A program made the position numbers and the translations under genes. Of a DNA stretch of 64,000 bases, positions 17,660 through 51,964 are shown piece by piece. This stretch comes from Candidatus Binataceae bacterium (lineage in GTDB: Bacteria > Desulfobacterota > Binatia > Binatales > Binataceae): positions 1,446 to 65,445 of the forward strand of contig JASHOJ010000187.1 of NCBI GenBank assembly GCA_030041155.1, in the 5' to 3' direction. Under the pieces are notes generated by a model. That model was not told the DNA's origin and did no database searches. It saw nothing but the letters and a program-made list of their open reading frames with translations. Every line of letters begins with the position of its first letter. Position 1 is the first letter of the stretch.

Positions 17660-17719
17660 GTCGAGCGAGACGGCAGCGAGCAGAAACGCCGGCGTTCTTC
17701 AATATCCTGGTACAACGCA

Positions 17720-21902: not shown

Positions 21903-22126
21903 AGTGCGAGATGAAGTGCGATCAGAATCCGTCGCTGAAGGGGGATAAAAACGCTGGGTGCAGACGCCAAATAGGTGAAAACCCGGCATAGAGTGCACCT
22001 AAGGGAGTGACTGGCAGTCTTACCCCTCGAAAGATCCGGAGTGCCGAGACCGTCCTGGGAGTGGTCCAGGCGTGAGCGCTGATGTGTTTTACCGGAAAAT
22101 CGGTAAGACAGCGCCATACTGTATGC

Positions 22127-22155
22127 TTGACAATCGCTGAAATACGACGTACAGT
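22127..22155 (+). promoter_or_regulatory. Sigma70-type promoter of the DGQHR/SNF2/MTase operon
   Basis: TTGACA (22127-22132), a 17-nt spacer, then TACAGT (22150-22155). The AAGGAG RBS (22174-22179) lies 7 nt before the ATG at 22187. Confidence 0.4.
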
Positions 22156-22186
22156 CTGTGGAGTTTTGACGCAAAGGAGCTATACA

Positions 22187-23323: not shown

Positions 23324-23605
23324 GTGGACGACTCAAGCCAGCTTGTCGCACAGTTTGAGAAAAACGCCAAAGAGGAAGTTCGAGTCAGCATCGACGAATT
23401 TCGCGGGCGAAAGATCATCAATATGCGAGTGTATTACCGGTCCGATAGCGGCAAGTGGCTGCCTGGCAAACAGGGGCTTGCGTTGGCTGTTGATCGCTAC
23501 CGTGATCTCGCCGATGCCGTTCTAAGGCTTGGCGAACGGCTGCAGTCGCAAGGCCTGTTGCCAAACGCCTCGATCTCGACCGGCTCACGGACAGAGGGCA
23601 AATAG
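23324..23605 (+). CDS. PC4-like (transcriptional coactivator p15 / YdbC-like) ssDNA-binding protein
   Basis: 'VRVSIDEFRGRKIINMRVYYRSDSGKWLPGKQGLALAVDRYRDLADAV' aligns by eye with human PC4 '[48 protein letters not shown]'. Confidence 0.55.
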   Translation: MDDSSQLVAQFEKNAKEEVRVSIDEFRGRKIINMRVYYRSDSGKWLPGKQGLALAVDRYRDLADAVLRLGERLQSQGLLPNASISTGSRTEGK

Positions 23606-23615
23606 GGGACGGCCT

Positions 23616-33200: not shown

Positions 33201-34017
33201 TGGTAAAAGCAATCCTCGCTTTACGCACGTGGAGTTCTCCGGGCGACCTGATCGCTCGTTCAGCTTTGGCCCTGGCGCCTTCCGCGAAGAAGGGCAGCCA
33301 TATCTTGAACTTGCTTACGCGATAACTGTCCACAAAGCACAAGGTAGCGACTTTGACACAGTGATTCTTGTGCTGCCGATGCAAAGCAGGTTGCTCTCTC
33401 GAGAGATGCTATACACGGCGCTGACCCGACAGAAGAGAAGAATCTGGATCCTGCATCAGGGGCCACTTGATAGCCTGTTGGCTTACCGCCATTACTCGTT
33501 CTCCGATATTGCAGCACGCTTCACGAACCTCCTACGCGAGCATCGACCACAGCAAGTGCCCAACCCAGTCGGCCTCCCGTCGGGTCTCCTGTCATTAAGC
33601 AGAGGGTTCCTCGAAGAACGCCTAGTCCATAGAACAGTTCGCGGTGAGATGGTTAGCTCTAAGTCGGAGCTCGCGATTGCCAATATTTTGTACTTACTCG
33701 AACGAGAGGGGCATTTGACATACGTAGTGGAGCCTCCATTGCCTTTTGCTGATAACGCAAAAGGCCGTTGGGCGGACTTTCAGATTAAATGTCGCAGCGG
33801 GACCTGGTATTGGGAGCACTGCGGAATGATGGATCACGAGAGCTATCGGCGGCGTTGGAAGCGGAAGGAGAGGCTATACCAGGAGAACGGCTTCACGCGT
33901 TACTCCGACGAGAATCCGTCTGGACACCTGATAGTCACAGAGGACGGATCGGGCCAGGGTCTGGACTCGCAGGCTATCGCCCTTCTGGCGCGCAAGCTCT
34001 TTGTCTCAGCGGATTAG
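30229..34017 (+). CDS. SF1 (RecD/Dda-like) helicase with unknown N-terminal domain and C-terminal DUF559/Vsr-like endonuclease fold
   Basis: Walker A 'LVGPAGTGKTTVLE', Walker B 'CIVDESSMM', 'YAITVHKAQGSDFDTVILVL' (SF1 motif VI region). C-terminal 'ELAIANILYLLEREGHLTYVVEP...ADFQIKCRSGTWYWEHCG' resembles DUF559/very-short-patch-repair nuclease domains. Confidence 0.7.
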   Translation: MPTPYVRHVSVRVPWQDAVWNGHVCDDPLANSSCLALRLIAENRDDEVEQGLAKEAFDGLSPEQMPPCLRSSAAFLSPHSYTFKSVMEYSKWSRDHKHILPRSVHLPAFGALLIPYRWMLKESGFQIAESLELDAHAEREPNRPSWLVNTSWVQHQDNQRTLLDAFAKPLLEDETLVFFYAPRTPLCDDERRALLGVALLQKKSDLVEYPYEGGNPNGRLQAMVWERPIQHSLRPRRKKGTGFSGGFVMPYHEVLALAERDRTVDPAEFVAFVPNDVRVQFSYGSEHVSHGVAATVLTASRNALEKIGTKLEGPWTSYISWIDERLSRLWRLQGPAPGLGVTLSALHKGFNGTLFAVALSDVLGENEDPWSVVDRVLSGAQDAPPGAPKITTVLRRRWANVKTDPKRLAALKLLARFELTNDQADRAVNDSEPARLLGNPYVLYEDDRKSFDRVSFATIDRGLYPGAEIAAAHPLSAECDRSLDEPDNPLRLRAACVHILEEAAAQGDTILPADRVKDACEKLTLSRPLPLDGELLDIFRDDFRPVIQVGGERTKPTAQLERYVHYREIIEQAVKSRLKSKPKRVVVDWKASLIRKFGKPRPGDVDELRARQEKEVALDRLTASRIATLVGPAGTGKTTVLELLLQQDAVVGTRVHLLAPTGKARVRLAQETNRPGEGETIAQFLLALERYDKVTGRYFPNPSAAKAEATTCIVDESSMMTEDMLAAITDAIPDSCRLILVGDPYQLPPIGAGCPFVDIIEFLRHNHAEAIGELTVPRRQDTSSQDGRRTTPLERSDVQLAAIFSGRALLPGEDEIAARILTSADDEFVKCRRWDQTAELPSLLRTIFKKEFSANDDTLQSKFEEFLGAVTNQKGYLNFENGCSDGASDWQILCVTKTQPGGSIHLNRHIKETYRSEWLEKAIESNHVPHFRDWFRFIKPRGPEQITYGDKVICVRNHFRGPWIYAERTRGPEDEYIANGETGIVVGQCAYGKSNPRFTHVEFSGRPDRSFSFGPGAFREEGQPYLELAYAITVHKAQGSDFDTVILVLPMQSRLLSREMLYTALTRQKRRIWILHQGPLDSLLAYRHYSFSDIAARFTNLLREHRPQQVPNPVGLPSGLLSLSRGFLEERLVHRTVRGEMVSSKSELAIANILYLLEREGHLTYVVEPPLPFADNAKGRWADFQIKCRSGTWYWEHCGMMDHESYRRRWKRKERLYQENGFTRYSDENPSGHLIVTEDGSGQGLDSQAIALLARKLFVSAD

Positions 34018-34152: not shown

Positions 34153-35298
34153 ATGGGGATTGCGAGCTATCAAGAAGACGATTTTGAGCGCTATACAGAC
34201 GCTCACTGGCGGGAGCTTAAATCCGCGCCCCAGGACCGACTTTATTTCTGCGATGTCTGTCGGGCTGAGTTCGCGAGCGAAGAGCAACGTGATCTACACC
34301 GGAGCGAGGTGCACTTGGCCGCGATTCCGCTGCTGCTGCTTGGAAATGTGGCGGCCCCCCACGAAATCCGGATCCGCAATCACAAGATGGCGGAGCAAGT
34401 CGGATTTCAAAACTGTCGCAAGCTTTCGGTTGCTCGCGACGGCCTTAGGCCGGTGCCCTACACCCCGACCCGACTGAAAGCCGAACTCGCGAAGGCCAAC
34501 CAGAGCCACTACCTGGTCCGTCCAGATGGTAGCGATGAGGAATACGTGATCTCCGTCCAGATTCCGGAAGCAGCGGTGCTGCGCGAAATTGATAGGACAT
34601 TCGTCGAATTGCTAGCAGTCGAAGCGCCGCGCGTTCAGGACATTGCCCGCTTCCGCGAAGTTGCCGCATCCATCGGTCGGGTCGGCGAATACAGCGGTGC
34701 GTTAGCTGATTACGTTATGGGCACGATCATCAAGGATCGGGATCACGCGCGCGGCGCCACGCTCGATTTTAATGAGTACAAGCCGAAGTACGAGTCCGCG
34801 CGCGCCATCCTTTTTGATTATGTGAAGGACGAGAGCCACCGCCCACCCGTCCCAGAGGCGGTCTGCGCGTCCATCAATTTTGGTCTTAACCAGTTTGACG
34901 GAACCTATCGTCCCGTCGGGATTCGGCTTCTCGACGACTGTGTCAGGTTTCTACTGCCACTTCTCGGTCCGACTACCAAGCTGCCAGACTTCACGCTCGT
35001 GTCACCCAGCCGGCATGGTGCCCCGATCTGTCCGCTCGATGGTGGCACGCATCATGTGCTGCAGGCCTTCGAGCGGATCAGCCTCAGCTCCGGTCGGTCA
35101 TTAGACGTGCTTCGGGAAGAGGCGGAAAAGGCCGAAAGCACCCTGCTTTCCGAGTATGACCGTGCGAAGCTTTACACGTTTACGGCGGTGGGACTTTTAA
35201 AGGCGGGCGATCGCAGCTCCTCTAAAAAGATACTCGCGCATCTCGTGAACGATTTTACTTTTAGCCGATGGGCCGAAGCTCAACTCTATTCCGCATGA
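34153..35298 (+). CDS. Hypothetical protein with N-terminal C2H2-type zinc finger
   Basis: 'YFCDVCRAEFASEEQRDLHRSEVH' is a perfect C-x2-C-x12-H-x4-H pattern. 381 aa, first gene of a coupled trio. Confidence 0.5.
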   Translation: MGIASYQEDDFERYTDAHWRELKSAPQDRLYFCDVCRAEFASEEQRDLHRSEVHLAAIPLLLLGNVAAPHEIRIRNHKMAEQVGFQNCRKLSVARDGLRPVPYTPTRLKAELAKANQSHYLVRPDGSDEEYVISVQIPEAAVLREIDRTFVELLAVEAPRVQDIARFREVAASIGRVGEYSGALADYVMGTIIKDRDHARGATLDFNEYKPKYESARAILFDYVKDESHRPPVPEAVCASINFGLNQFDGTYRPVGIRLLDDCVRFLLPLLGPTTKLPDFTLVSPSRHGAPICPLDGGTHHVLQAFERISLSSGRSLDVLREEAEKAESTLLSEYDRAKLYTFTAVGLLKAGDRSSSKKILAHLVNDFTFSRWAEAQLYSA

Positions 35299-36407
35299 AT
35301 GACAAGAATATCCAGCAAAACGCTGCTGAAAAGACGGCTGCCGGCACCCGAGACAGCTCGCAGGCACACGATGATAGCTCTCACGCCGAAGGACCGTCAT
35401 CCCCCAGGCTGAATCAATCGGATGTCGGGGGTGCCCACATTCCTTCGGGACCGAGCCCAATGTCGGCTCCATCGCTTACAGGTTATTACTCAGCGCGGCG
35501 CGGCCAGCCGGGGGCCCTCGTTAAGGCGCTTCGCCTGGGACCCGGCACAGGGTTTCCGGATACCGAGCGACAAACAATTCTCGCCGATATCAGCCGACTT
35601 GATCCGTATCTAGCGAAGTCTGTCACTCTGGCCCAAGCTGCAACGGACGTGGCAAAAGATCGGGCCGTCTTTGATTGGATCGGTGAACTCGTCGTTTACG
35701 AACTCCGAGGTCATTGGGCGCCGGAAGCGGGCCTCTCCGCCGCAGAAACGTTCGATGAGATCTCCCGCTCGATACGCGCCCAGATGCAGCGAAAGGAAGC
35801 TCGCAAAAAGGGCTTCAACCTGCTGCTAACCGCACTCGCCTGGCTTGCGCCTCGCGGCCTCCAGCCCGAGGACGCTCTGAGAGCGATCGAACACGCTCTC
35901 ACCGTTGCCAAGCGGAGCAGCATTACAAGCGACGAGCGGCAGCGCCAAGCGATGGCAGAGCTGGTGAAGATCAAAGCCAGCCCCAAGCTTCTCAAGGCGT
36001 TGCTCCAGATTCTCGCTCCCTGGCGCACGCGTACTCTCGAGGTCGAAGCACAAGCCGCCGCGCACCGCGAAGAAGTGGCCGCCCTAAATTCCCGAATACA
36101 AGCGTTGGAAGGACGCGTTACGGAATCCAGGGAACTGACGACAAATCTCGAGGCGCGACTGGCGGATCACGGCCGTCTGCTTGAAGACCGTGAGCGTAGG
36201 CTAAGCACACAGCACAATCTTGCCCAATCGCAGCTGGCCCTTACTAGGGGAACGATTAACGGTTGGCTCGAAAACGAAGTGCGACCGCGCCTGGCAGATG
36301 CATTGGATGCGGTCGAGTGCGAGCCCCCGCGCCACGAGGTCTTGCGCGAGCGCTTAAAGGCGGTCCTGGCTTTGCTTGATCAGAAAAAAGGGGGGCACTG
36401 GGGATGA
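35295..36407 (+). CDS. Hypothetical protein, disordered N-terminus plus long C-terminal coiled coil
   Basis: ATGA overlap with the upstream stop. The C-terminal ~150 aa have heptad-like spacing (..AALNSRIQALEGRVTESRELTTNLEARLADHGRLLEDRERRL..). Confidence 0.45.
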   Translation: MNDKNIQQNAAEKTAAGTRDSSQAHDDSSHAEGPSSPRLNQSDVGGAHIPSGPSPMSAPSLTGYYSARRGQPGALVKALRLGPGTGFPDTERQTILADISRLDPYLAKSVTLAQAATDVAKDRAVFDWIGELVVYELRGHWAPEAGLSAAETFDEISRSIRAQMQRKEARKKGFNLLLTALAWLAPRGLQPEDALRAIEHALTVAKRSSITSDERQRQAMAELVKIKASPKLLKALLQILAPWRTRTLEVEAQAAAHREEVAALNSRIQALEGRVTESRELTTNLEARLADHGRLLEDRERRLSTQHNLAQSQLALTRGTINGWLENEVRPRLADALDAVECEPPRHEVLRERLKAVLALLDQKKGGHWG

Positions 36408-38260
36408 TTTTCGGCCTCGACTTTGGAACCACGAATTCGCTGGTGGCTCTGGTACAGGGTGACCGCGTAATCCATTTTCTGGACGGCAACGAGCCACATC
36501 CATCCGTAGTGTGGTACCGAAGCGGTGACGCTACTGTCGTTGGCCGGATCGCAAAAGAAAACCTGGGGTCGCGCCAGAGTGGCGTCATCGGTGACTTTGT
36601 GCGGTCGCCGAAATTCAATCTGGGAAAGGGCCATCCGGTGTATGTAGCTGGCCGGAACTTAGCGGCCAGCGATGTTGTGTCAGAAATTTTAGCGTTTCTA
36701 CGCAATGACGTAATGCGAGAAGAGCGCGGCCTGAAGGATATCAGTTTCGAGCGCGCCGTGGTCACAATTCCAGTCACCATGCATGGTCCGGCTCGGCAAG
36801 AATTACGCGAAGCCGCGCACAAGGCCGGACTTCGAATCCACCAGTTCGTTCACGAACCGCTCGCCGCTCTTTATGGCCATCTCCGCGCGCATCCTGATTT
36901 CAGACGCCGAATCGCCGAGCTCGAGAACAAAGTTGCTCTGGTTTTCGATTGGGGCGGTGGCACTTTGGATCTGACGCTCTGCAAGTTCATGCGCGGCAGT
37001 TTGGTACAGATCGCGAATCGTGGTGATACCGACGTAGGAGGCGACCGGTTCGACGAGGCAATCGCCGATTGGGTGCGTGAACGCCACAGAAGGCAACACT
37101 CCTTGCAGTCTGGCCGAGAGGACACCGAACTCGCCAAGGCCCGATTGATCGAGCAGTGTGAGCTCGCAAAAAAACAGCTTTCAATTCAAAACAGTACATT
37201 CATCTTTGTCAGAGACTTCATTCAGCGGTCTAGTCCAGAACACACACTCCAGGTAGCCATAACGGCCGACGACCTGAGCACTATTAGCGATCGCCTCGTC
37301 ACTCAGGGTCTCGAAAATATCGACAAGCTTCTGTCTTCGGCCGGCTATGATCAAAGGTCAATTGCATTTTGTCTGGCGACCGGAGGAATGTGCCGCGTTC
37401 CCTTTATTCAGCGGCGTCTTCAAGAAAAATTTGGCTTCGACCGTGTTGAAGCTCCGGAACATGCCGAATGGCTTATCGCCGACGGCGCAGCCTGGATCGC
37501 TCATGATGGCCTTCCCCTGGAACTGGCCAAGCCTTTCGAGCTTTATCACGCGGACAACACATACGTGCCGATACTGCACGACAAGCGAAGACTCCCAATC
37601 GAGAACGTCCAAGAATCGCCGGTATCGCTCCAGGTCTATTGCGTCGACCCGAGAGACGGTCTCGCTAAGCTCCAATTTGCGCGCCCAACCTGGCCGGGTC
37701 GCACGTCGCCTTCTGATCCGCGCCAGATCTATACGACCCAGACTCTCAAGGTCGACCCCAATGCTCCGCCATTTGTCGAACGAATCATGCTCGACATCAC
37801 GATCGATCACAACCTGGTTGTCAGCGTTCGCGCCAGATCTGGTGAGGACGACAAACTTACTGAGGTGCATGACCTGGAATTCGGCTTGCATCTCGGCCCA
37901 GCGTCAAACGCGGGGTCGTCCGATCGGGCCGGAGGAGGTTCGTCCAGTAACGACCCGCTACCCACTGCAAGCAATCAGACCATAGGGGCGGTCCGGATTC
38001 GATCCAACGTCCTTCTTCAGAGTCATGAAATAAATGGCGGTTATCGCTGGGACTTGGTTCCAGGTGACATTGTCGAGCAATACTCTCCTCGCTACTGGCC
38101 AATCGTCCTTAACGCGCGCCAAATAGGCGAGAAAATGTATTACGTCCCGTGTGCATTGTGTCACCAAGGAATCTACGAAATTATGCTTCGAGGATGCAGC
38201 GAACCACGATGTCCGGAGAGCCGCAGATCCCATCCCACGACCCAGTCGGCGCGGCACTAA
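36404..38260 (+). CDS. Hsp70/DnaK-like actin-fold ATPase (non-canonical, 618 aa)
   Basis: 'MIFGLDFGTTNSLVAL' phosphate-1 motif, 'LVFDWGGGTLDLTL' (DLGGGTFD-like), 'FCLATGGMCRVPFIQ' adenosine motif. The C-terminal 230 aa are unlike a DnaK substrate-binding domain. ATGA overlap with the upstream gene. Confidence 0.75.
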   Translation: MIFGLDFGTTNSLVALVQGDRVIHFLDGNEPHPSVVWYRSGDATVVGRIAKENLGSRQSGVIGDFVRSPKFNLGKGHPVYVAGRNLAASDVVSEILAFLRNDVMREERGLKDISFERAVVTIPVTMHGPARQELREAAHKAGLRIHQFVHEPLAALYGHLRAHPDFRRRIAELENKVALVFDWGGGTLDLTLCKFMRGSLVQIANRGDTDVGGDRFDEAIADWVRERHRRQHSLQSGREDTELAKARLIEQCELAKKQLSIQNSTFIFVRDFIQRSSPEHTLQVAITADDLSTISDRLVTQGLENIDKLLSSAGYDQRSIAFCLATGGMCRVPFIQRRLQEKFGFDRVEAPEHAEWLIADGAAWIAHDGLPLELAKPFELYHADNTYVPILHDKRRLPIENVQESPVSLQVYCVDPRDGLAKLQFARPTWPGRTSPSDPRQIYTTQTLKVDPNAPPFVERIMLDITIDHNLVVSVRARSGEDDKLTEVHDLEFGLHLGPASNAGSSDRAGGGSSSNDPLPTASNQTIGAVRIRSNVLLQSHEINGGYRWDLVPGDIVEQYSPRYWPIVLNARQIGEKMYYVPCALCHQGIYEIMLRGCSEPRCPESRRSHPTTQSARH

Positions 38261-38303: not shown

Positions 38304-39119
38304 ATGCCAGCTACAACACCGAATATCCGTCGGGAGCTTGCTCGTCGCTACCGTGACTGTCCAATCGATTGTCCGATGTTTCAAGACGAGCTGATTTCCA
38401 CGCTGAGCGATTTCTTCGGTGTGTTTCACTCTTTGTTGGAGCCAGACAAAGTGTTTTGGTTTCGAGGCCATCCACGACTGACGCATTCACTCGCCCCTTC
38501 AGCGCTTCGATACACCGAGCAAGAGAAGAGGGATACGGCGCTCCGTCTCGTAGCTGATATGAAGCGCTTCCTGGACATGAAGTTAGGCCGCCCGCCGGCT
38601 CCCGACGATGACCTCGGGTGGATTCAGGTTGCGCAGCATTATGGACTACCCACACGACTGTTAGACTGGACTCAGAATGCAGCGGTGGCACTCTTTTTCT
38701 CGTGCAGCAAAGACATCGATTCGGATGGCTTGGTCGTAATCCTTAATCCTATCGAACTCAATCAAAGTGCCGATCCTCGCTCGCCACGCGTGTTCAATAT
38801 GGAACGAGATGCCAGAATCATCAGACCATACTTGAAGCTCGACGGCAGAATACGACCTTCGGGCAAGCGCACAATCGCAATCAACCCAACCTGGAACACC
38901 GAAAGAATCGCTCTACAGCAAGGTGTCTTTACTCTCCACGGTTCGCGAACCTTTGCGTTGGATCGCGGTCAGGCAAGCTCCCTCCTATACGTACCTATAT
39001 TGCGCGAGCACAAAAGCGCTCTATTAAACGAGTTGGAGCGTGTTGGTATCGGTGAGATGTTCATTTTTCCGGAACCGGAACATGTGTGCTCTCACCTCCG
39101 GCGAGGTGCCGGATTGTAA
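38304..39119 (+). CDS. FRG-domain protein
   Basis: 'KVFWFRGHPRLTHSLAPSALR' is the FRG signature. 271 aa. Confidence 0.6.
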   Translation: MPATTPNIRRELARRYRDCPIDCPMFQDELISTLSDFFGVFHSLLEPDKVFWFRGHPRLTHSLAPSALRYTEQEKRDTALRLVADMKRFLDMKLGRPPAPDDDLGWIQVAQHYGLPTRLLDWTQNAAVALFFSCSKDIDSDGLVVILNPIELNQSADPRSPRVFNMERDARIIRPYLKLDGRIRPSGKRTIAINPTWNTERIALQQGVFTLHGSRTFALDRGQASSLLYVPILREHKSALLNELERVGIGEMFIFPEPEHVCSHLRRGAGL

Positions 39120-41574: not shown

Positions 41575-42042
41575 TTGAATTATACGCTTCAGCAGCTTCG
41601 GGACATTGTCGGTATTTCGGTGGAAACGTTCCGACATTGGCAGCGGGTAATCCCCGCTTTCTCTGCTCGAAAAGGACGTCGGGCGCGTTTTTCAACGGGC
41701 GATCTTATCGCCGCCGCGATAATTCGAGTCCTCACCGACGACTGCGGAATAAAAATTGGCCGACTGAAGGCAGCGAATCAGATCGTCTCGCTGTGCAATG
41801 ATAAATCATGGGCTCTTGATCGCAAGACCCTGGTGGTGAACCCAGCCGAAGGTAGTTGCCAGGTCGTTGGAGATCGGGGCGCTGGGGGCGACGGCTTCGT
41901 TGTCCTCTGCCCTCTCAAACCCATAATGAGCGAGCTGCGAGGCAAACTGTTGGACTCCGAAACGACCCGGGCACAGCGAGCCCTCGCCTTTCCAGTGATC
42001 GAGGTGAAGAGGAAAAACCAGACCTGGAGACGCGGACCATGA
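41575..42042 (+). CDS. MerR/AlpA-like HTH protein (putative regulator)
   Basis: TTG start. 'YTLQQLRDIVGISVETFRHWQR' resembles MerR-superfamily HTHs. ATGA overlap with the downstream MTase. Confidence 0.45.
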   Translation: MNYTLQQLRDIVGISVETFRHWQRVIPAFSARKGRRARFSTGDLIAAAIIRVLTDDCGIKIGRLKAANQIVSLCNDKSWALDRKTLVVNPAEGSCQVVGDRGAGGDGFVVLCPLKPIMSELRGKLLDSETTRAQRALAFPVIEVKRKNQTWRRGP

Positions 42043-45000
42043 ATGGCAGGCATCTCCTGTCCGACGAGTGGAAGGTGCGGCTGGGTCTTTTGAGTCGCTC
42101 CGCCGCTGAATTCTACGAGGAGAACGAATCCGTCGGCGACGTACCATATGCGGGAGCTATCCGTACCGCACTCCGGGAGTTGAACCTCTCGGGATTGTTC
42201 TGCGTGCAGGGCGTTCCGACGATCGTCTTCCTTTCCTTGGATGAATACGACCCGGAGAAGCTCATTGCCGTACATGCCGCTCTCTGGAACCAAGGGCTTG
42301 CGAGCTTGCTTATGGTCGCAAGCGGCGACACACTGCGAGCCTTTTCGTTGGCGAAGAAGCCACTCAGAGAAACTGGTGACGAGTTCGAAAAGCGCTGTCT
42401 GGTGGAAACGCTGGAGGCAGTCGTTGATGTTCTCAGGATACAGAGCGTCTTGTCCGCAGCTGAGTCCGGCAGGCTGTGGCAAGACGAGCCGGAATATTTT
42501 CAGCCGAAGGAACGGGTCGACCAAGTCTTGCTCGACAACCTGACAGAATCCCACCGTCAGCTGTGTGACTTGAGTCTGCCATCTCAAGCCGCTCAAGCTC
42601 TCCTCATACAGGCGATGTTTATCGCCTACTTGGAAGATCGCGGCATAACGTCCCGAGAGTATTTTGCTAGGGGCACTGGCGGTATGGCAGACACCTTCCT
42701 TGAGCTGCTTCGGACCGGGAAGGTTAGCTCACTCAGCTCGCTCTTCGGAAAACTTCGAGAAGACTTCAATGGCGACCTGTTCGTGGCGCCCTGTTCTTTC
42801 GATAGCGGCGCCAAGGCTCCGGCATTGAACAGCGCACATCTTGATGTACTTTCACGGTTCCGCAGCGGTGAGGAGGAAATGGTCGGTGGCCAGCGCAGAT
42901 TTTGGGGATACGACTTCAAATACATCCCGATAGAACTCATCAGTGCTGTCTACGATCGCTTTCTTGAGGAGGAAAAGCAGGAGCGCCGCGAGCAGGGAGC
43001 CTACTACACTCCGATGTTCCTCGCGGATGCAATTGTTTCCCAGGTCTGGGAACTTCTGCCCACAGAATTGAAGGTTAAGTGCACAGTCCTCGATCCCGCA
43101 TGCGGTTCTGGGGTCTTCCTTGTACGGTTTTTTCAAAGATCCTGCGAGTTTTGGCGTTCGACTCACCAAACGAAAACCATCCGGTGGGACGTCCTGCGCT
43201 CAATCTTAGATCGAATCAATGGTTGGGACGTGAACGAGAACGCGGTGCGGGTCGCAGTCTTCTCTCTATATGTGGCGCTAATGGAGGAGGTATCTCCGCC
43301 AGATCTTCAGCTGCTCCTGAAACGAGGAAGAATCCTGCCGGGGCTATGGACTCGAACCATGGTGTGCCAGGACTTCTTCTCAGTACGTGAAGATCGCACG
43401 AATAATTTCGACGTTATTGTTGGCAATCCTCCGTGGAGCAGCCGTCAAGGCTCGGAACGCAGCCACGTGAAGTGGTCCGAAGCGGCGCAGCTCCCGCTAC
43501 CCGCCAAGGAAGCGGCGTGGGCTTTTGCATGGAAAAGCCTTCGTCACATATCACAGGCCGGTATTGTCGGTTTGCTACTTCCCGCCATGGGATTCCTCCA
43601 CAACCAAGCGGAGGACGCGATCGAAGCGCGCAATCAATTCCTAGTAGATGCGCGGATCCGGCGAATCGTCAACTTTGCTGACCTGCGTTTTTTGCTTTTC
43701 GACAAAGCGCAACGAGCAGCCGCGCTCTTAGTCTTCGCGCAAAACTCTGAGTCGAAGCCTGTGTATCGTATTGAATACTGGGTGCCTAAGGCGCGCCCGG
43801 GTCTGTTTATAAAGCGTGTTATTCTGGTAAGTACCGCCGACAAGGCGTCGTTTACCTCCGAGGAAGCCGTTGCTGATCCACTGCTGTTTACAAGGAGAAT
43901 GTGGATGCACGATTCGGAGGCGAAGCTTTTCAACTATTTGAGGCACCTGACACCGCTGAGCCGCTTGGTGAAGGAACATCGCGAGGCACGAACGGAAGAA
44001 CCGTCCACCGGCCTATGGATAATCGGCCAAGGGTTTCAGCCTTTCAACGAGCCCACGAAAAGCGCTCCCAAAGCCAAGGAGAGCGACTATGTAGGCAAGG
44101 TCCCCGATCTGCCGGTAAAACGAATGACCCGGCTCGCGCAGTCAGCAACGGGATTGGCTCCGTGGAGAGATAATTTAGTTCGTAGAAAAGGCTACGAGCG
44201 GGGATTCCACGGGCCCCGTGTGTTGGTCTCTCGCGCAGTTGAAGTCTCGGACAGCAGATTGCGAGCTTCGTATGTAGAGGCGCCGCTGACCTTCCAGGAT
44301 ATCATTCAGGCAATCGCCGTTCCGATAGATGATGTCCCTCGCGCCAAGGTTCTCGCGGCTTTCCTGAATAGTCGGCTTGCAACCTGGTTTGCGTTTCACG
44401 GAACTTCGTCGTTCTCTTCCGATCGTCAGGAAGTCAAGGAAAATCAACTACTGACTTTGCCGTTCCCAGCTGCAGATGAAGTAGAGAAGCCCCAACGGGC
44501 TAGAGCCGCGGCTCAAGGGTTAATCAGTCTCGTCGATGCTTATTTCGGAGACGGGAACACCAGTTTCCGACTCGTCGGTGAGGACAACCCGATTCCTACC
44601 GAATTGGACGACCTTACGTACGACTACTTCGGTCTATCCAAAATCGAGCGAACTCTCGTTGACGACGTTGTTGCGAACATAATCCCGGGGATCCAACCTA
44701 CCCGGACTCGATACCCGGACCTATGGAGGCCCGCTGACGTCTCGGACCGACACCAGTACGCGAGTCTCCTTCTGAGCTTACTCAGAGAGTGGTTCGATCA
44801 AACCTGCGTTGTCGGCGCAAAGTTAGTGGCCAGAAATTCAGACTTGGCAATTTTGAAGCTGTCGCTCGAAAGCAGGAATGGAACTCCAGAGTACACCGAA
44901 GAGGCTGGCGACTCGTTCACCGATGTGCTCACGCGGCTTTCGCGAGAGGTAAACCAGCCGTTGGATCGCAATTTTCAGGTAGTTCCGAATTTCCGGATTT

Positions 45001-45128
45001 TCATCGGCAGAGACCTCTATCTTATCAAGCCGACGCAGAAGCGATATTGGCTAAAGTCCACCGCGATAGCTGACTCGGATTCGATCGCGATGGATCTGCA
45101 GACCGGCGCGGAATTACACCTCGAGTAA
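42039..45128 (+). CDS. N6-adenine DNA methyltransferase, gamma-class, PglX/Type IIG-like (second copy)
   Basis: 'GAYYTPMFLADAIVSQV' (motif X), 'LDPACGSGVFLVRF' (motif I), 'VIVGNPPWSS' (motif IV at 43425-43436). ~560 aa C-terminal putative TRD. Internal Met start at 42039; the track ORF starts at 41856. Confidence 0.8.
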   Translation: MNGRHLLSDEWKVRLGLLSRSAAEFYEENESVGDVPYAGAIRTALRELNLSGLFCVQGVPTIVFLSLDEYDPEKLIAVHAALWNQGLASLLMVASGDTLRAFSLAKKPLRETGDEFEKRCLVETLEAVVDVLRIQSVLSAAESGRLWQDEPEYFQPKERVDQVLLDNLTESHRQLCDLSLPSQAAQALLIQAMFIAYLEDRGITSREYFARGTGGMADTFLELLRTGKVSSLSSLFGKLREDFNGDLFVAPCSFDSGAKAPALNSAHLDVLSRFRSGEEEMVGGQRRFWGYDFKYIPIELISAVYDRFLEEEKQERREQGAYYTPMFLADAIVSQVWELLPTELKVKCTVLDPACGSGVFLVRFFQRSCEFWRSTHQTKTIRWDVLRSILDRINGWDVNENAVRVAVFSLYVALMEEVSPPDLQLLLKRGRILPGLWTRTMVCQDFFSVREDRTNNFDVIVGNPPWSSRQGSERSHVKWSEAAQLPLPAKEAAWAFAWKSLRHISQAGIVGLLLPAMGFLHNQAEDAIEARNQFLVDARIRRIVNFADLRFLLFDKAQRAAALLVFAQNSESKPVYRIEYWVPKARPGLFIKRVILVSTADKASFTSEEAVADPLLFTRRMWMHDSEAKLFNYLRHLTPLSRLVKEHREARTEEPSTGLWIIGQGFQPFNEPTKSAPKAKESDYVGKVPDLPVKRMTRLAQSATGLAPWRDNLVRRKGYERGFHGPRVLVSRAVEVSDSRLRASYVEAPLTFQDIIQAIAVPIDDVPRAKVLAAFLNSRLATWFAFHGTSSFSSDRQEVKENQLLTLPFPAADEVEKPQRARAAAQGLISLVDAYFGDGNTSFRLVGEDNPIPTELDDLTYDYFGLSKIERTLVDDVVANIIPGIQPTRTRYPDLWRPADVSDRHQYASLLLSLLREWFDQTCVVGAKLVARNSDLAILKLSLESRNGTPEYTEEAGDSFTDVLTRLSREVNQPLDRNFQVVPNFRIFIGRDLYLIKPTQKRYWLKSTAIADSDSIAMDLQTGAELHLE

Positions 45129-45138: not shown

Positions 45139-45801
45139 ATGCCGGTGGGAGATGCCGAGGAGTGGCGGAAGCGATTCATAAGAATGGACGAGCGCCTACT
45201 CGCACGCATTTCCGAAATCTGGCCGTCGTGCCTGGCAACACTGCGCGGGCAACCTGAAGAGAACACGATAACGATGACCTTAGTGGACGTACTGTCCCGC
45301 GACATCGTCGCTCGTCGAATTGCCTACTTTGAGTACCAGTTTGAACCGTTCGGATACAGGCCGGACGGAGTCGTCTTCAGCAAAGGAAAGGTGGATTTGG
45401 CTGCGATTCTAGATCAGGACCGCAACAAATACTTGGCCTACGAGTGCAAGCGATTGAACGTCATCTATAGCGGCACCACGCGCTTGCTCGCGGCTGACTA
45501 CGTGAAAGATGGCACCATGCGATTTGTGACCGAGCAATACGCTGATGGGCTTCCGCTCGGTGGTATGCTGGGTTACGTTCTGAACGGCGACACGCAGTCT
45601 GCAATCGATGGCGTAAAAAAGGCAATCACCAAGAAGCGCGCGCGGCTCGGTCTTCGGTCCGGACCCCGGGAGATACCACCTATAGCCGGACTTAAAAGAT
45701 TCTCAACGGGACATGCTCGGCCCGCGGGCTCTACGATTGAACTCTTACACACTTTTCTGCCGTTTTCGGCATCGAAAGGCGAGCTAACAATCGGCTATTA
45801 A
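45139..45801 (+). CDS. Putative PD-(D/E)xK restriction-endonuclease-like protein
   Basis: 'YRPDGVVFSKGKVDLAAILDQDRNKYLAYECKRL' has a PD...D...ECK arrangement. Starts 11 nt after the MTase stop. Confidence 0.45.
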   Translation: MPVGDAEEWRKRFIRMDERLLARISEIWPSCLATLRGQPEENTITMTLVDVLSRDIVARRIAYFEYQFEPFGYRPDGVVFSKGKVDLAAILDQDRNKYLAYECKRLNVIYSGTTRLLAADYVKDGTMRFVTEQYADGLPLGGMLGYVLNGDTQSAIDGVKKAITKKRARLGLRSGPREIPPIAGLKRFSTGHARPAGSTIELLHTFLPFSASKGELTIGY

Positions 45802-46052: not shown

Positions 46053-47126
46053 ATGACAGACCTGCAGATGCCGACGCTCAATTTCATGCCGTGGTGTCGG
46101 CTCGATCGAGAATATCGCGTGGGAGCGGTTGCGCTCATCCCGTATTCGCGCGAACATCCGCCGGTTGATCTCGATCCCGACCATACCCGCGCCGTTAACA
46201 CGATCCTCGCCGACTTCATTTACGTTAACGGGCGTCCGATCGATCGGTGCACACTCATAACCCTCGAAAACCGCTTGTTAATAGAGGGTTGGGACAACCC
46301 CAACGCATTCGAGACAACATACGGCCACGCGCAGATGGCGTGTCTCTCGTCACTCGAGGGCCGCGACTATTTTGGTAGCGCGGAACCGTACAGCAACGCG
46401 GAATGCTTCGCGCTCTATTCACGGCAATACCGTGAAGGGAGGGCCGTCGCGGCGCCGATTTTCAGGCGGGATAGTACTCCGTTGGGGCTCGCCGGACCTG
46501 CCCTGCGGGTTCACATACCTGCGCAGGCAATAGCCGTTCCGAAGCTCCCATTCAATGAGCCGCTCTATCGCGCGCTCACGGCGCTGCGTCGTCGATGGCT
46601 CGACGCGGGGCGGACGGGCGACTGGGCGATCTGGGCCGAGTCTATCTATTCCTTCAATCTAGCGAATACCGACCAGGAGAGTTTCGGCAGGGACTTGGAG
46701 TGGGTGCTCATGTGTTCGGCCATGCAGCGCCTTTTGGGAGCCCGCTCTTCAGCGGCGGATACAGCTAGCAAACTCGCAGCCGCCTTAACATCCGACGGCT
46801 CGCTCGGTCCGTCAGCATCAGAGACTGTCCAGGACTGGGCGAAAGAGTTTTACCGCCTGCGCAACGACTTTGCGCATGGGAAATTGCGGACGCGGCAGCC
46901 GCGCATGTGGCACCAACCCTATCACCTGCTACTCGCCGCCATCGTCTTTCCTCTGCTCGTCAAAAAGCTTCTGGAACGGGAGGCATTCTACCAATCGACC
47001 GAAACCGATCGGGTGGAGGTCGCGGCGTTCGTGCGTTTCGCCGCCGATCTCCGCGACACCGGCTCTCCGCGCAAGAGTTGGCACCGCTATGTGCGCGAGG
47101 AGCAGGAGCAGGCGCGGGTCCCATAG
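46053..47126 (+). CDS. HEPN-motif protein (putative RNase / abortive-infection effector)
   Basis: 'EFYRLRNDFAHGKL' is the R-x4-H HEPN motif (46860-46877). The N-terminal ~250 aa are unassigned. Confidence 0.5.
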   Translation: MTDLQMPTLNFMPWCRLDREYRVGAVALIPYSREHPPVDLDPDHTRAVNTILADFIYVNGRPIDRCTLITLENRLLIEGWDNPNAFETTYGHAQMACLSSLEGRDYFGSAEPYSNAECFALYSRQYREGRAVAAPIFRRDSTPLGLAGPALRVHIPAQAIAVPKLPFNEPLYRALTALRRRWLDAGRTGDWAIWAESIYSFNLANTDQESFGRDLEWVLMCSAMQRLLGARSSAADTASKLAAALTSDGSLGPSASETVQDWAKEFYRLRNDFAHGKLRTRQPRMWHQPYHLLLAAIVFPLLVKKLLEREAFYQSTETDRVEVAAFVRFAADLRDTGSPRKSWHRYVREEQEQARVP

Positions 47127-47646
47127 GTCGAGCCGTGGCGCTACTGCCAGGCCATCGGCCGCACAGGCGAGACGCGTGTCGGTCGTCTAACCGCGCTCGT
47201 TCATATGCGGTACTTCTTTATATCGACCGTGTTTGGAATTGCCGCCTCTGCTGTCGCCGTCGCCGTTACGACGATCGAGATGTATCCGCCCGCGCTGGCG
47301 CGCGCCGTTTTTTGATTACGGTGGGTCGTCCTGAAAGGGTGAAATCCGGTCAATTCCGAGGAAGAAATGCCATCAGAGTTTGATCGCGAAGGCGGTCGGC
47401 TCGTTCTTCCTAGAGCGTGAGACATTTGTGAGAAACGCGGCTTCAAGCGAGAAATCGACGTGGCCGATTCTGTGCCACCGCCGTGCCCACAATTTGGGCC
47501 GTTTCACCGTTTCATGTCGACATTTCTGGCGTCTTTCGCGCTCGACAGCCTCAATTGACAACCTTGAGCAACGAGTGGGATACAGCAAAGGGTAGGGGTC
47601 ACAATAGGGCGCGGCGTAAAGTCCACAAAGGAGGAGGGCAATAGAA

Positions 47647-48753
47647 TTGCCGATCTCGGAAGAAATCATCGGAGAGGCGACTGCTCGCTATGAGCGGGAG
47701 CGTGACCGCTATCTCAAACTCGCCGCCCGGGTTGCTGACATTTGTCGGTCTGAAATCGTGGAGGCGAACGCAATACGCGCTCAAGTCACCTGGCGCGCGA
47801 AGAGTGCAAAAAGTTTTGCAGACAAGCTCAGACGTTTTTCAAAAAGGCCCGAAAAGAAATGCGAGACCGTCGACAAAGTTTTCGTTATGGTTAGCGACTT
47901 GGCTGGTGTTCGCATCGCGACCTACCAGCCAGAGACGGAATCGCGCGTCACACAGGAGATTCAAAAGCGCTTTCGAGGGACAGATGGACTTGATGTTAAG
48001 CCGGAAAAAAAAGACAAGGTTGCACAAGGCGGATTTTATCGTGCGACGCACTGTCAGGTGGTGCTTCCAGATGACGACCTGGTGGGGACCTATGAAAACC
48101 TAAAGGCCACGAGTTGTGAAATCCAAGTCTGCTCCATGATGGCGCATGTCTGGAATGAAATTGAGCACGACATCGGCTACAAACCCGAGGGAACGGGCCC
48201 TCAAGAGAAAGAGCACGGCCTTCTTCAAGCACTTGGCCACCTGACTCGTTCGGGCGATGAGATCATCACACGGCTGCTGGAAGCCAATACGGAACGTCTA
48301 CAAGAGCAGCAGGGCGAATTTGAAGATGTGTTTGAGTTTGTCGCCAGGCTCAAACCGCACTTCCCAGATACTGACTTCACTCTATACTCCGGACAGCTCT
48401 TCGATGAGGCGCAGGCGCTTGGATTGTCCTCTTTCGAGAAGTTGAAGGCGGCGCTGGGAGGAGATGCGAACTTCACTCCGGAAGTCGCCAGGAAGAAGCT
48501 GGCAGAATTCAACGACTATCTGACGAAGCGCCAGGAACCAGAGTGGCTTCTCAACGAAGAATCATCAGATGTCGTGCTGATTTTGCTTCTCGAGAAGTTT
48601 GCAAAGCAGATAGAAGAGAACCACCCGGCCGGCCGCGGCATGGGTCGTCCTCCAAGAATCAGAAGCATTGCGACGCGGTACCGACAGTACCGCAACGATC
48701 TCGAGCAAATCACTGTGGCTTCTGACGGAGTCGCCGAGCCTCACCCCGGATGA
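47647..48753 (+). CDS. RelA/SpoT-domain protein, fused toxSAS-antitoxin (CapRel-like) candidate
   Basis: TTG start after an AAGGAGGAGGG RBS. 'DLAGVRIATY', 'GFYRATHCQVVLP', 'EIQVCSMMAHVWNEIEHDIGYK' are synthetase-domain motifs of small alarmone synthetases. 368 aa with a ~190 aa C-terminal extension. Confidence 0.6.
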   Translation: MPISEEIIGEATARYERERDRYLKLAARVADICRSEIVEANAIRAQVTWRAKSAKSFADKLRRFSKRPEKKCETVDKVFVMVSDLAGVRIATYQPETESRVTQEIQKRFRGTDGLDVKPEKKDKVAQGGFYRATHCQVVLPDDDLVGTYENLKATSCEIQVCSMMAHVWNEIEHDIGYKPEGTGPQEKEHGLLQALGHLTRSGDEIITRLLEANTERLQEQQGEFEDVFEFVARLKPHFPDTDFTLYSGQLFDEAQALGLSSFEKLKAALGGDANFTPEVARKKLAEFNDYLTKRQEPEWLLNEESSDVVLILLLEKFAKQIEENHPAGRGMGRPPRIRSIATRYRQYRNDLEQITVASDGVAEPHPG

Positions 48754-49002
48754 TTGGCCAGCAAGAGGCCAGCTGTTTAGGAGGCGACTCTCGAGGCGGC
48801 AATAGTGTCCGATCCGATTCCGGCTGGCCGTGCTAAAAGGGCAGCGGGATCCGAACGGACACGACTGAAATTGAGTTCAATGCGCCGGTATTTGAGAATC
48901 GAACTGTCGTAGTCTGGCTACGATTCGACGAAAGAAACCAAACGAATCAAGCGAGAGGACTGCCTCGGAACGCCTCTCAGCGATTCTAATTCCGCGCGGA
49001 TC

Positions 49003-49046
49003 GCTGTGCCCGATTTTGTGCCCTGCTGTGCCCAAAATTGTGCCCT
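49003..49046 (+). repeat. Two tandem 22-bp direct repeats (4 x TGTGCCC at 12/10/12-bp spacing)
   Basis: GCTGTGCCCGATTTTGTGCCCT / GCTGTGCCCAAAATTGTGCCCT, read directly from the sequence, ~150 bp inside the tRNA fragment. Confidence 0.5.
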
Positions 49047-49235: not shown

Positions 49236-49299
49236 AAAAACCCAATAAAATCATGCACTTTTGACGGCGATCGGCTAGCTGAATTGACAATAAGCATTT

Positions 49300-49450: not shown

Positions 49451-50494
49451 GTGCTCAATCGGCGCGGGCCAACAAGACCGGGCGAAAAGAGCCCCAGCTA
49501 CTGGGGACCTCCGGCTCCCCGGTGCTACAATTGGTTTGATGTGGATTTACTAAAGAATGCCATCAGCTCCATAAAAGTCGGGGTCGAAGATTCCCAATCG
49601 ACTGAACACGAGCGTTTACTCTCGGCAGTTCGCAACATCTACGCCGGCATCCTCCTTCTTTACAAAGAGAAGTTGCGCCGACTCTCGCCTCCAAACAGCG
49701 ACGAGGCCTTACTCAAAGCGATAATCCTTCCCAGGCTGGACGCCGACGGCAAGGTAATCTTCATGGGCCGAGGAAGGAAGACGGTTGACGTGCAGCAGAT
49801 GAAGGAGCGTTTCGCTTCGCTCGGAATCGCAACCGACTGGGGCCGGTTCGACCGCATCAGCGGAGTCCGGAACGATCTCGAACATTACTATGCGAACGTC
49901 AGCGAGGCTCAACTAAGGGGACTGATCTCTGATGCATTTGTCCTGGTACGCGACTTCGTGGTCAGCCAGCTAGACGAGGATCCGAGAGCGCTCCTAGGCG
50001 AAGACGCTTGGCAGGAGATGCTCGCCGTTTCTGAAGTTTTCGAGAAAGAGCGCAGAGAGTGTCAAGAATTGCTGGAGTCGATCGAGTGGGCGTCCGATGC
50101 TCTATGTCGTGGAGTGCTAAGCTTAGCATGCGAGAATTGTGGCTCTCCCCTGCTTCGAGCTGGCCCCGCAGCAGCGGCCCAGCAGGATGAGGTCGGGTTG
50201 GAGTGTCGTGCCTGCGGAGAGCGCGAAGAACGAGAATCTTTTGTGCCGCGGGCCATCGCCTCAGCTTTGGAAAATGAACTGTACCTGTCGCACTCGGACG
50301 GTAACGAGACGCCTTACGTCGCGTGCCCCGAATGCTCCGTTGAAGCGTATGTTATCGAAGAAGGCCGCTGCGCGCTCTGCGGGCATGAGGCCGACCATTC
50401 ATGCTCGAGTTGCGGTGGTAACATTCCACCCGAGGAGTTGGACTCCTCTCCGCTTTGCGGCTGGTGCGCACACATGATGTCGAAGGACGATTAG
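49451..50494 (+). CDS. Hypothetical protein with HEPN-like R-x4-H motif and C-terminal zinc ribbons
   Basis: GTG start. 'RISGVRNDLEHYY' (49868-49885). C-terminal CENCG...CRACG...CPECS...CALCG...CSSCGG...CGWC clusters. Confidence 0.4.
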   Translation: MLNRRGPTRPGEKSPSYWGPPAPRCYNWFDVDLLKNAISSIKVGVEDSQSTEHERLLSAVRNIYAGILLLYKEKLRRLSPPNSDEALLKAIILPRLDADGKVIFMGRGRKTVDVQQMKERFASLGIATDWGRFDRISGVRNDLEHYYANVSEAQLRGLISDAFVLVRDFVVSQLDEDPRALLGEDAWQEMLAVSEVFEKERRECQELLESIEWASDALCRGVLSLACENCGSPLLRAGPAAAAQQDEVGLECRACGEREERESFVPRAIASALENELYLSHSDGNETPYVACPECSVEAYVIEEGRCALCGHEADHSCSSCGGNIPPEELDSSPLCGWCAHMMSKDD

Positions 50495-50836: not shown

Positions 50837-51964
50837 TCAGTCGGGTTTTCGCGCCGGACTTTCGGCTGAATCCTCGTCTACATCGTCAAAGCCGGGCGGA
50901 AGTGCGGACTCGCGCTCCCGATCTTGTGCAGACCGCCGATTTCTCAGACGTTCGATAAGGCCGCGCCTCATTGAAGTCAGTTCCGCAGGCAGATTGTTCA
51001 CAGCCTCATCCTCGAAGCTTAGGTTCAGGTAATCCAACGCCAGGCTGGCCACTGCCTCGCCTTGACGGAAATCGCGCTTTCGTTTCATCGGGTCGCGCGT
51101 CGGATGCGTCGAAAGCCAGAGTTTGTGCAGGGCAAAAACACGCGGGTCCGGGACGACGAATCGTACCGGGTAACCATTTTCCGCGATTACAACTTGCGTC
51201 GTTCGTGGCGCGTCGGCTATCCAGTCCAACCCCTGCAAGGGTTCCGGTACGAGGTCTTCATTGCTGCCGAGACTCATAGCTGGCCGATTCTCTGAGAGCG
51301 GCGCACGGATGAGGTCGACCATGAAGCCCTTGTTGTTCACGGCGCGGAAAGAACGTTGGCGCGCGGGGCGAAAGGTCTTATCGACCTTTTGAATCAACCC
51401 CAGCAGTCCGGAACTTCGAACGTCACCAGCGATCTCAAGCTCCGATTTTGTGTGTAGGAGCGTATCGAGGTCGTTCGTTTGAAGAAGGCCGGCCTTAAGC
51501 TGAACGCCGGCAGCCATCTCGTAGGCATAAATGGCGTGGCTGCCGAGGACGATCAGGTGTGTGCCCAAGACGCCCTTGGAGTCGAGCAGTCTTACGATAT
51601 CGGCGGCGATCCTCGGAACGCGATTGACCCCAGCCGCGACGCAGAACTTGGATCGCGCAGCGATCTCGCCTTCGAGGGCTTTGATCTGCTCTCTAAGTTC
51701 GTTCTTCCTTGCGGTGAACCGCTGAAGGACTTCCTCCGTTTTCGCCGAGCGCGGGCCCAGCGACTGTTGGTGCCCCTCGCGGTCGAGCGTCTTTACCAGA
51801 TACTCTTTGGAGCCAACCCGCTTCCAATGGAGGCCACCCCTGAATTTCGCGTACTCTTGTTGGAGATCAGTGAAGTGTTGATAGAGCTGGACAGCATCGA
51901 CCGCTACCCTCCGCTGCTCCGCAGTTAATTCCTTGAATTTCAGGAGTTTTCCTCTCCAAATCAA
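50837..51964 (-). CDS. Nucleotidyltransferase-fold protein (AbiEii/GSU2403-like, putative)
   Basis: 'LIVLGSHAIYAYE...LLQTNDLDTLL' fits the GS...DxD minimal nucleotidyltransferase pattern. Family placement is tentative. Confidence 0.35.
   Translation of the reverse strand: MIWRGKLLKFKELTAEQRRVAVDAVQLYQHFTDLQQEYAKFRGGLHWKRVGSKEYLVKTLDREGHQQSLGPRSAKTEEVLQRFTARKNELREQIKALEGEIAARSKFCVAAGVNRVPRIAADIVRLLDSKGVLGTHLIVLGSHAIYAYEMAAGVQLKAGLLQTNDLDTLLHTKSELEIAGDVRSSGLLGLIQKVDKTFRPARQRSFRAVNNKGFMVDLIRAPLSENRPAMSLGSNEDLVPEPLQGLDWIADAPRTTQVVIAENGYPVRFVVPDPRVFALHKLWLSTHPTRDPMKRKRDFRQGEAVASLALDYLNLSFEDEAVNNLPAELTSMRRGLIERLRNRRSAQDRERESALPPGFDDVDEDSAESPARKPD

Follow-up and report, generated by a model that had tools for sequence, protein, structure and literature searches.

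A RelA/SpoT-type synthetase of a family associated with BREX and Pbe operons, with a predicted all-alpha C-terminal tail and carried as a cassette on a conjugative element

The subject of this study is a gene for a RelA/SpoT homologue (RSH) found in 64,000 nucleotides of DNA from a Candidatus Binataceae bacterium (contig JASHOJ010000187.1); this whole stretch is called the window below, and all coordinates refer to it. The gene occupies positions 47647–48753 of the forward strand and encodes a protein of the small alarmone synthetase (SAS) type with a long C-terminal extension. The family to which this protein belongs is inherited together with BREX type 1, with CxC-ABC/Pbe and with other defence operons based on DNA modification, while the copy in the window is an autonomous cassette with a promoter-like leader, situated among the defence genes that a conjugative element carries as cargo.

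Open reading frame and upstream region

The open reading frame (ORF) is complete, with a TTG start, 368 codons and a stop, and the sequence GGAGGAGGG at 47630–47638, spaced 8 nt from the TTG, represents its ribosome-binding site (RBS). The preceding ORF ends at 47126, leaving a gap of 520 bp in front of the SAS gene. The initial annotation, which had taken the gene for a fused toxin–antitoxin of the CapRel family, described the coordinates, the product of 368 amino acids (aa), the TTG codon, the RBS and the upstream gap in the same way, and all of this was reproduced in the sequence. The position of the start is supported by the three closest copies, L001, L002 and L034 (85–87% DNA identity), where both RBS and start are aligned with those of the window, the codon itself being GTG, not TTG. 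The parts of the gene that are needed for the following description are:

47539–47646, forward strand: conserved upstream leader with a TTGACA box (47555–47560) and the RBS (47630–47638)
47647–47781, forward strand: N-terminal helix, residues 1–45 (helix 5–41), from alignment and an AlphaFold2 (AF2) model
47782–48201, forward strand: synthetase (SYNTH) core, residues 46–185, from Pfam, fold and alignment
48202–48306, forward strand: linker helix, residues 186–220 (helix 187–219), from AF2 and fold alignment
48307–48627, forward strand: acidic all-alpha domain of five helices, residues 221–327, from the AF2 model and with no fold match
48628–48726, forward strand: basic loop AGRGxGRPPRI and C-terminal helix, residues 328–360, from alignment and AF2

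Within the 520-bp gap only the proximal 110–140 bp are kept in related copies. Searching the upstream region against Rfam matched no family, and no ToxI-like tandem repeats were found in the gap. A small antitoxin gene or RNA at this place was considered and rejected, because the short ORFs are not common to the relatives and the distal part is unconserved. Two further observations concern this region. A terminator-like hairpin lies at 47291–47304, 3' of the 46053–47126 ORF. The leader box with AATTGACAA (47538–47561) recurs at 49267–49290 with 75% identity, upstream of the gene assigned to candidate system PDC-S64, and the two genes may thus share one promoter type.

Synthetase core

The Pfam scan of the 368-aa protein gave RelA_SpoT (PF04607) as the sole match, at residues 50–181 (E 1.9e-10, 41.4 bits against a cut-off of 27), without TGS, ACT or HD domains. 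Approximately 150–180 further residues follow and are conserved in more than 1000 homologues, which bears out the proposed layout of a synthetase with a C-terminal extension. A long RSH enzyme (RelA, SpoT or Rel) or a housekeeping tail of the TGS, ACT or HD type was rejected, because RelA_SpoT is the only Pfam domain present and the fold search with the tail gave no solved structure; the initial annotation had named a TGS/ACT tail as the finding that would speak against it, and neither search returned one.

The core possesses the donor-ATP residues R50, K52, S56, K60 and R63, the Mg ligand D84 and also R89, the G-loop Y131-R132-x-x-H135, and the catalytic strand E158-x-Q160-x-C162-S163 followed by E171, H174, Y178 and K179. 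Among the 192 family members aligned, R50, K52, K60, D84, R89, Y131, H135, E158, Q160, E171, Y178 and K179 are invariant (192/192) and S56 is kept in 191, so the synthetase residues, whose loss would also have contradicted the initial annotation, are intact across the relatives. In FaRel2 their counterparts, responsible for binding of donor ATP and Mg and for stacking of the acceptor on the G-loop Tyr, are R64, K66, S70, K74, D90, R95, E145, Q147 and Y128 (PMC11782079). Because the invariant residues correspond to these positions, the protein is apparently active as a RelA/SpoT-type pyrophosphate-transferring enzyme. Judged by the alignment, the core has all its parts and evolves under strong purifying selection; its most likely reaction is therefore the transfer of an ATP-derived pyrophosphate to an acceptor's 3'-OH.

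Searches of all PDB sequences with phmmer and with the family profile matched only RelQ/YjbM and RelP/YwaC (best profile E 8e-8). The full-length AF2 model, built with 40 homologues, had a mean predicted local distance difference test score (pLDDT) of 89.7 and a predicted template-modelling score of 0.85, so the relative placement of the N- and C-terminal halves is predicted with confidence. When this model was compared with PDB structures by Foldseek, RelQ and RelP chains ranked first (E 1.5e-7, template-modelling score 0.77 on the target, about 210 columns, 23% identity). Ahead of the G-loop stands K122-D123, the basic-Asp motif of alarmone synthetases; CapRel has Y-D at this place.

Two features distinguish the catalytic half of the family. 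The N-terminal helix belongs to its best-conserved parts, with R14, R17, D20, R21 and L25 invariant in a 40-sequence alignment and an entropy of 0.6 bits over residues 11–30. Where RelQ has EIQIRT, the active-site strand of the family is EIQxCS, and 191/192 members have the Cys. In the window this Cys162 is encoded within 48127–48135 (residues 161–163); Cys157 and Cys136 are present in 190/192 and 157/192 members, respectively. By strand alternation Cys162 would point, like E158 and Q160, into the active site, and the conserved cysteines may provide redox or metal sensitivity or alter phosphate binding.

C-terminal tail

The linker helix joins the core to the tail, and its first part is still aligned with the C-terminal helix of RelQ and RelP. 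Beyond it the similarity to known structures disappears: Foldseek with the tail found no match in PDB (best E 2, no CapRel chain) or in BFVD. Residues 187–360 consist of helices only in the full-length AF2 model, and a separate model of residues 216–368 agrees with it (pLDDT 88.8). The five-helix domain (residues 221–327) carries a net charge of −9, the family median being −8. It is followed by the basic loop, in which R337 is present in 189/192 members, and by a helix with an aromatic pair, [YF]345 in 182/192 and [FY]348 in 148/192; the window protein has YRQY.

With an entropy of 1.9–2.1 bits against 1.0–1.3 bits in the core, the tail evolves faster than the core according to the alignment, and the same pattern was reported for the CapRel sensor domain (PMC9712102). 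Searching 1.84 billion representative proteins with the tail profile, without a word index, matched 115 proteins or clusters. All of them represent the C-terminal part of proteins of about 350–420 aa, or fragments; three short matches proved to be fragments, and P0126 is a piece left by a frameshift in a BREX locus that is itself fragmented. The tail is therefore exclusive to the synthetase-fused architecture, and none of the 1.84 billion representatives carries it standing alone or on another effector.

Relation to CapRel

Membership in the CapRel family was checked with CapRel^SJ46 (KU760857, J46_0058, 373 aa) as a reference, and true membership is rejected: the family named by the initial annotation is wrong. 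BLASTP of the window protein against the reference gave E 0.44 over 15 residues, and hhalign of the family alignment gave a probability of 0.15%. Since CapRel^SJ46 matches the PADLOC model PDC-S33 over its full length (7e-87, 290 bits), this model can be used as a proxy of the CapRel family; the window protein reached only 1.1e-4 (19.7 bits) over residues 20–169, i.e. the generic synthetase core. The phmmer and hmmsearch runs against PDB sequences with the window protein and the family did not retrieve CapRel 7ZTB, and in Foldseek the CapRel entries 9ERV and 7ZTB ranked 29–37, below all RelQ/RelP chains, with 12–15% identity and a root-mean-square deviation of 12–18 Å.

The proposed CapRel-like C-terminal domain did not stand up either. 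In CapRel the antitoxin and sensor is a pseudo-zinc-finger domain (pseudo-ZFD) on a three-stranded beta-sheet (PMC9712102), whereas the window tail is predicted to consist of helices only, so the two folds differ. A pseudo-ZFD homologous to ATphRel/ATcapRel is absent from the tail, which is all-alpha and has no Foldseek match to 7ZTB or 9ERV. What survives of the first reading is a single-gene synthetase with intact catalytic residues and a non-housekeeping extension in a dense defence island; what falls is the CapRel identity.

Distribution and genomic contexts of the family

More than 1000 members of the family, about 360 aa long and conserved over their whole length, are detectable. When one genome per species was scanned, 80 loci were revealed, mostly in Alphaproteobacteria (Mesorhizobium, Rhizobium, sphingomonads, Rhodobacterales), with further hosts among Myxococcota, Acidobacteriota, Actinomycetota, Planctomycetota and others, at least six phyla in total. 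The distribution is patchy and cassette-like, with copies carried on plasmids, integrative and conjugative elements and in defence operons. Databases label these proteins as “GTP pyrophosphokinase”.

For 84 loci the neighbouring genes were clustered and then assigned with the help of reference proteins. In 30 of them the SAS gene is enclosed in a BREX type 1 operon, and three more lie on truncated contigs with BREX genes; L044 of Polyangium jinanense is an example of a BREX-embedded copy. Two positions are used, brxC-SAS-pglX-pglZ-brxL and brxC-pglX-SAS-pglZ-brxL, and the SAS gene either overlaps its operon neighbours by start and stop codons or is separated from them by no more than 20 nt. 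In another 27 of the 84 loci it is the first gene of a CxC-ABC/PbeABCD set with the order SAS, a protein of about 870 aa with a Sigma70_r4 helix-turn-helix, PbeA (HKD-helicase), a small protein, PbeC (CxC ABC ATPase) and a DndE-like protein. The ~870-aa product, annotated as “sigma factor-like helix-turn-helix DNA-binding protein” and standing outside the canonical PbeABCD description, always follows the SAS directly in loci of this type (L012, 11087–13690; L087, 11235–13529; and 25 others). The Pbe set adjoins dndA-E, as for example on a conjugative plasmid of Rhizobium leguminosarum; L087 is a Pbe-linked locus on a plasmid of strain WSM1689 of this species. Rarer neighbours are DrmD with DrmMI of DISARM (L056), a DrmMI-like methylase with a DruE-like helicase (L076), mad3/LmuB-like genes resembling MADS (L074) and a GmrSD-like enzyme (L079). 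Clustering of the neighbours gave no protein partner common to all contexts.

On the neighbour-joining tree the BREX and Pbe contexts each form coherent clades, and the association is therefore long-lived rather than a series of scattered recent insertions. In one BREX operon (L094) a SLFN/AlbA_2-HATPase gene (434–2101) lies between brxC and pglX and the SAS gene between pglX and pglZ; since both are carried there, more than one accessory gene can nest in a single BREX operon. In the literature searched no paper ties RelA/SpoT enzymes or alarmones to BREX, PglZ, Dnd or Pbe, and neither appears in a detailed comparative study of Dnd/CxC systems. Within the limits of that literature the association of an RSH family with BREX and Pbe is unreported.

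The copy in the window

On the same tree the window protein groups with the stand-alone copies L034 and L001/L002, and this clade is sister to the BREX-embedded copies. Relatives at 72%, 65% and 64% identity have the order pglX-SAS-pglZ-brxL, and others, at 68% and 65%, stand alone, with a transposase as neighbour or inside an element that bears an integrase. The window clade, P0005 and P0010 are stand-alone with their own leader, and the L001 copy adjoins a serine recombinase. The DNA shared with the closest copies is limited to the following stretch:

47508–48852, no strand assigned: mobile single-gene cassette, the only DNA common to L034 (87%) and L001/L002 (85%)

It includes the gene, about 110–140 bp upstream and 50–100 bp downstream, and the flanks are unrelated. 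Because the similarity is confined to these positions, the unit is a single-gene cassette of about 1.3 kb. Direct repeats rich in TGTGCC(C/A) flank it, one copy at 47457–47478 and two tandem copies at 49003–49046. The DNA shared with L001 and L034 stops just short of these repeats, which may be remnants of the insertion site or a matter of chance.

No BREX, Pbe or YejK-like genes adjoin the SAS gene of the window. Its wider surroundings contain a conjugation module at 2770–18673, so the window is part of a conjugative element with the defence island as cargo:

2770–5553, reverse strand: TrwC relaxase
5557–7425, reverse strand: TrwB coupling protein
11671–12891, reverse strand: TrbL/VirB6
14085–16745, reverse strand: VirB4-like ATPase
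17720–18673, reverse strand: VirB11-like T2SSE ATPase

Defence genes span 22–52 kb of the window and include, besides the SAS gene, the following, with two restriction-modification (RM) enzymes among them:

22082–23308: orphan DndB, without dndCDE
23529–26840: HKD+SNF2 helicase with weak similarity to PbeA/DrmD
26822–30193: Type ISP RM enzyme
30229–34017: PDC-S68
36404–38260: Hsp70/MreB-like ATPase
38304–39119: PDC-S15/FRG
41856–45128: Type IIG RM enzyme
49451–50494: Cys-rich protein of candidate system PDC-S64 (E 1.5e-44)
50837–51964, reverse strand: PF12281 nucleotidyltransferase (NTP_transf_8; E 1.9e-50)

The two overlapping ORFs of about 380 aa that precede the Hsp70-like gene have no match in Pfam or PADLOC, and the stretch 34153–38260 may be a three-gene defence candidate. 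Two ORFs between the Type IIG and SAS genes, 45139–45801 (220 aa) and 46053–47126 (357 aa), gave no match in Pfam, NCBIfam or PADLOC.

Interpretation and proposed mechanism

Based on these data one can assume that the window protein is most likely a regulated defence effector resembling toxic small alarmone synthetases (toxSASs). In a more complete form, towards which we incline with the balance only slightly in its favour, it is a stand-alone member of a distinct RSH family, with a RelQ-like core, an acidic all-alpha tail and a basic/aromatic C-terminal helix, acting in anti-phage defence. The tail would either silence the enzyme or sense a trigger. It might occlude the ATP site in cis, as in CapRel, where the C-terminal domain plugs this site until a phage protein pulls the domain away (PMC9712102), or it might control oligomerisation or partner binding, as in GRel/Pag1B. 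Upon infection the enzyme would be switched on and growth arrested in the manner of abortive infection, either by synthesis of (pp)pGpp or (pp)pApp with a drain of nucleoside triphosphates, or by pyrophosphorylation of tRNA 3'-ends.

As to the acceptor, a purine nucleotide seems modestly preferable to tRNA, because the core is closest to RelQ/RelP and keeps K122-D123, absent from CapRel. The ordered, conserved N-terminal helix counts against this lean, since it recalls the N-terminus of FaRel2, which anchors tRNA (PMC11782079).

Several points weigh against a role as an autonomous defence effector. The replacement of Arg by Cys in EIQxCS has no explanation within this scheme and leaves the choice of acceptor open. 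The core, as ranked by Foldseek, is nearer to non-toxic housekeeping SASs than to proven toxSASs. Finally, the protein could depend on BREX and Pbe, with which it is co-inherited in a clade-coherent way, and if it does, the autonomy ascribed to the window copy becomes weaker.

Alternative explanations

This last point leads to the alternative that survives best, namely that the enzyme works only with BREX, Pbe or DISARM-type machinery, as an accessory or “guard” of these systems. It could be a latent suicide effector released once a phage inhibits the host system, or it could make a nucleotide signal for a partner, for instance PglZ of the phosphatase family, to use or degrade. The window copy would in this case be a remnant, or would act with RM enzymes in trans. 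Analogues of such a suicide effector are PrrC, located inside the EcoprrI type I RM locus, and PARIS, triggered by Ocr. About 70% of the loci belong to such operons, their reading frames overlapping the neighbouring ones or nearly touching them; the coherence of the BREX and Pbe clades, the pglX-SAS-pglZ-brxL order in the closest relatives outside the window clade (those at 72%, 65% and 64%) and the existence of two distinct BREX insertion points argue in the same direction. However, the partner systems (BREX, CxC-ABC/Pbe, DISARM, MADS-like) are mutually unrelated and have no partner gene in common, the window clade, P0005 and P0010 stand alone with their own leader, and independent defence genes are able to nest inside BREX and RM loci. 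Strict dependence appears unlikely on this evidence. A bolder statement, that the family serves many BREX type 1 operons as a functional seventh component and many CxC-ABC/Pbe operons as their lead gene, is possible yet doubtful. If true, it would couple tail-switched pyrophosphorylation of nucleotides or tRNA to immunity based on DNA modification. The enzyme could then be a second-line suicide arm, fired once the primary system is blocked or overrun, or a source of signal for partners such as PglZ, and the window copy would be this module in the form of a captured, autonomous cassette.

The second alternative sees in the acidic tail a mimic of DNA. A DNA-binding protein, freed by phage attack on the chromosome, would bind it, as may be suggested by analogy with PANGU systems. 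In GRel/Pag1B a nucleoid protein binds the acidic tail, breaks an inert tetramer and starts pppGpp synthesis, and the isolated synthetase domain of Pag1B is inactive and not toxic (bioRxiv 10.64898/2026.04.06.716658). In the window protein, too, binding to the tail would activate an inert oligomer for (pp)pGpp synthesis. By its description Pag1B agrees with the window protein in layout and is similar in size: the synthetase is N-terminal, the helical linker long, and the C-terminal domain helical and acidic. The RelQ-like core is consistent with oligomerisation, RelQ being a tetramer (PMC11782079). Nevertheless, no gene for a YejK-like nucleoid-associated protein (NAP) stands beside any inspected member, no Pfam NA37 match was found in the window and 10 other loci, and DNA mimicry by the tail is a guess from its charge. 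We regard this explanation as rather improbable.

A housekeeping alarmone synthetase, i.e. an analogue of RelQ or RelP producing (p)ppGpp under stress, with a lineage-specific tail for oligomerisation or regulation and no role in defence, would agree with the best sequence and fold matches (RelQ/YjbM and RelP/YwaC) and with the database name. It is, however, very improbable in view of the score against the NCBIfam YjbM model NF053588 (32.3 bits with a cut-off of 320), the length of 368 aa as compared to about 200–230 aa of single-domain RelQ/RelP, the patchy and mobile distribution over at least six phyla, and the presence of EIQxCS, not EIQIRT, in 191/192 members. Least credible of all is a CapRel-family fused toxin–antitoxin whose tail binds the phage major capsid protein and frees a tRNA-pyrophosphorylating toxin: the single ORF of similar length (368 vs 373 aa), the G-loop Tyr with adenine-sandwiching Arg residues and the YRQY at 345–348, placed at a similar distance from the C-terminus as YPNY 352–355 of CapRel, are outweighed by the alignments, PDC-S33 and fold ranking, by a C-terminal domain without beta-sheet and by the lack of a full-length homologue among 50,697 phage records, and capsid sensing and tRNA pyrophosphorylation have no specific support. 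The YxxY-type pair should be taken as a lead, not as evidence; its context is not homologous to the ATP-site plug of CapRel.

Significance

RSH enzymes are known in immunity as bicistronic toxSAS toxin–antitoxin pairs, as fused CapRel and as NAP-activated GRel. The family described here would add a fourth form, with a new regulatory domain found in about 115 sequence clusters from at least six phyla, GRel having been compared by its description only. The more significant point is the stable place of its members in BREX (pglX-X-pglZ and brxC-X-pglX) and at the head of Pbe sets, which links simple and assayable chemistry to systems with a still unclear mechanism of phage exclusion. For annotation it means that neither a housekeeping-style “GTP pyrophosphokinase” nor CapRel fits such genes.

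Comparison with known systems

RelQ/SAS1 and RelP/SAS2 (PDB 5DEC and 6EWZ) provide the closest match in sequence and fold, covering residues ~47–205; they and the window protein have the same catalytic residues, and both keep the basic-Asp motif ahead of the G-loop. Unlike them, the window protein has about 150 extra C-terminal residues and an ordered, highly conserved N-terminal helix, its family has Cys in place of the Arg of EIQIRT, and its context is that of defence and mobile elements, not housekeeping.

With CapRel (7ZTB) it has in common a single polypeptide of about 370 aa, an N-terminal RSH synthetase with the G-loop Tyr and ATP-binding Arg residues, a faster-evolving C-terminal region, a context of mobile elements and defence, and an aromatic YxxY-type pair near the C-terminus. 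Apart from the tail fold, the differences are the strand EVQLRT of CapRel against EIQxCS, and the embedding of the window family in BREX and Pbe operons together with its absence from the phage collection.

Nested accessory genes of BREX and RM loci, such as PrrC in EcoprrI, BrxU and PARIS, likewise represent an extra gene between core genes and co-transcribed with them. Here, in contrast, the effector is an RSH pyrophosphokinase, and none has been reported for BREX, Dnd/Pbe or DISARM in the literature searched.

Type I PANGU, i.e. GRel/Pag1B, resembles the window protein, as far as its published description allows comparison, in the order of synthetase, helical linker and acidic helical tail of unknown fold, in a size of about 37–41 kDa, in the link to defence and in the plausibility of a nucleotide acceptor. 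The window family differs in having no adjacent YejK-like gene, i.e. no bicistronic operon, and in its range, which covers Alphaproteobacteria, Myxococcota, Acidobacteriota and Actinomycetota as against Gammaproteobacteria for GRel/Pag1B. In outline, with its RelQ-like core, helical linker and acidic helical tail, the window protein looks nearer to Pag1B but lacks its partner gene, and in being self-contained it looks like CapRel.

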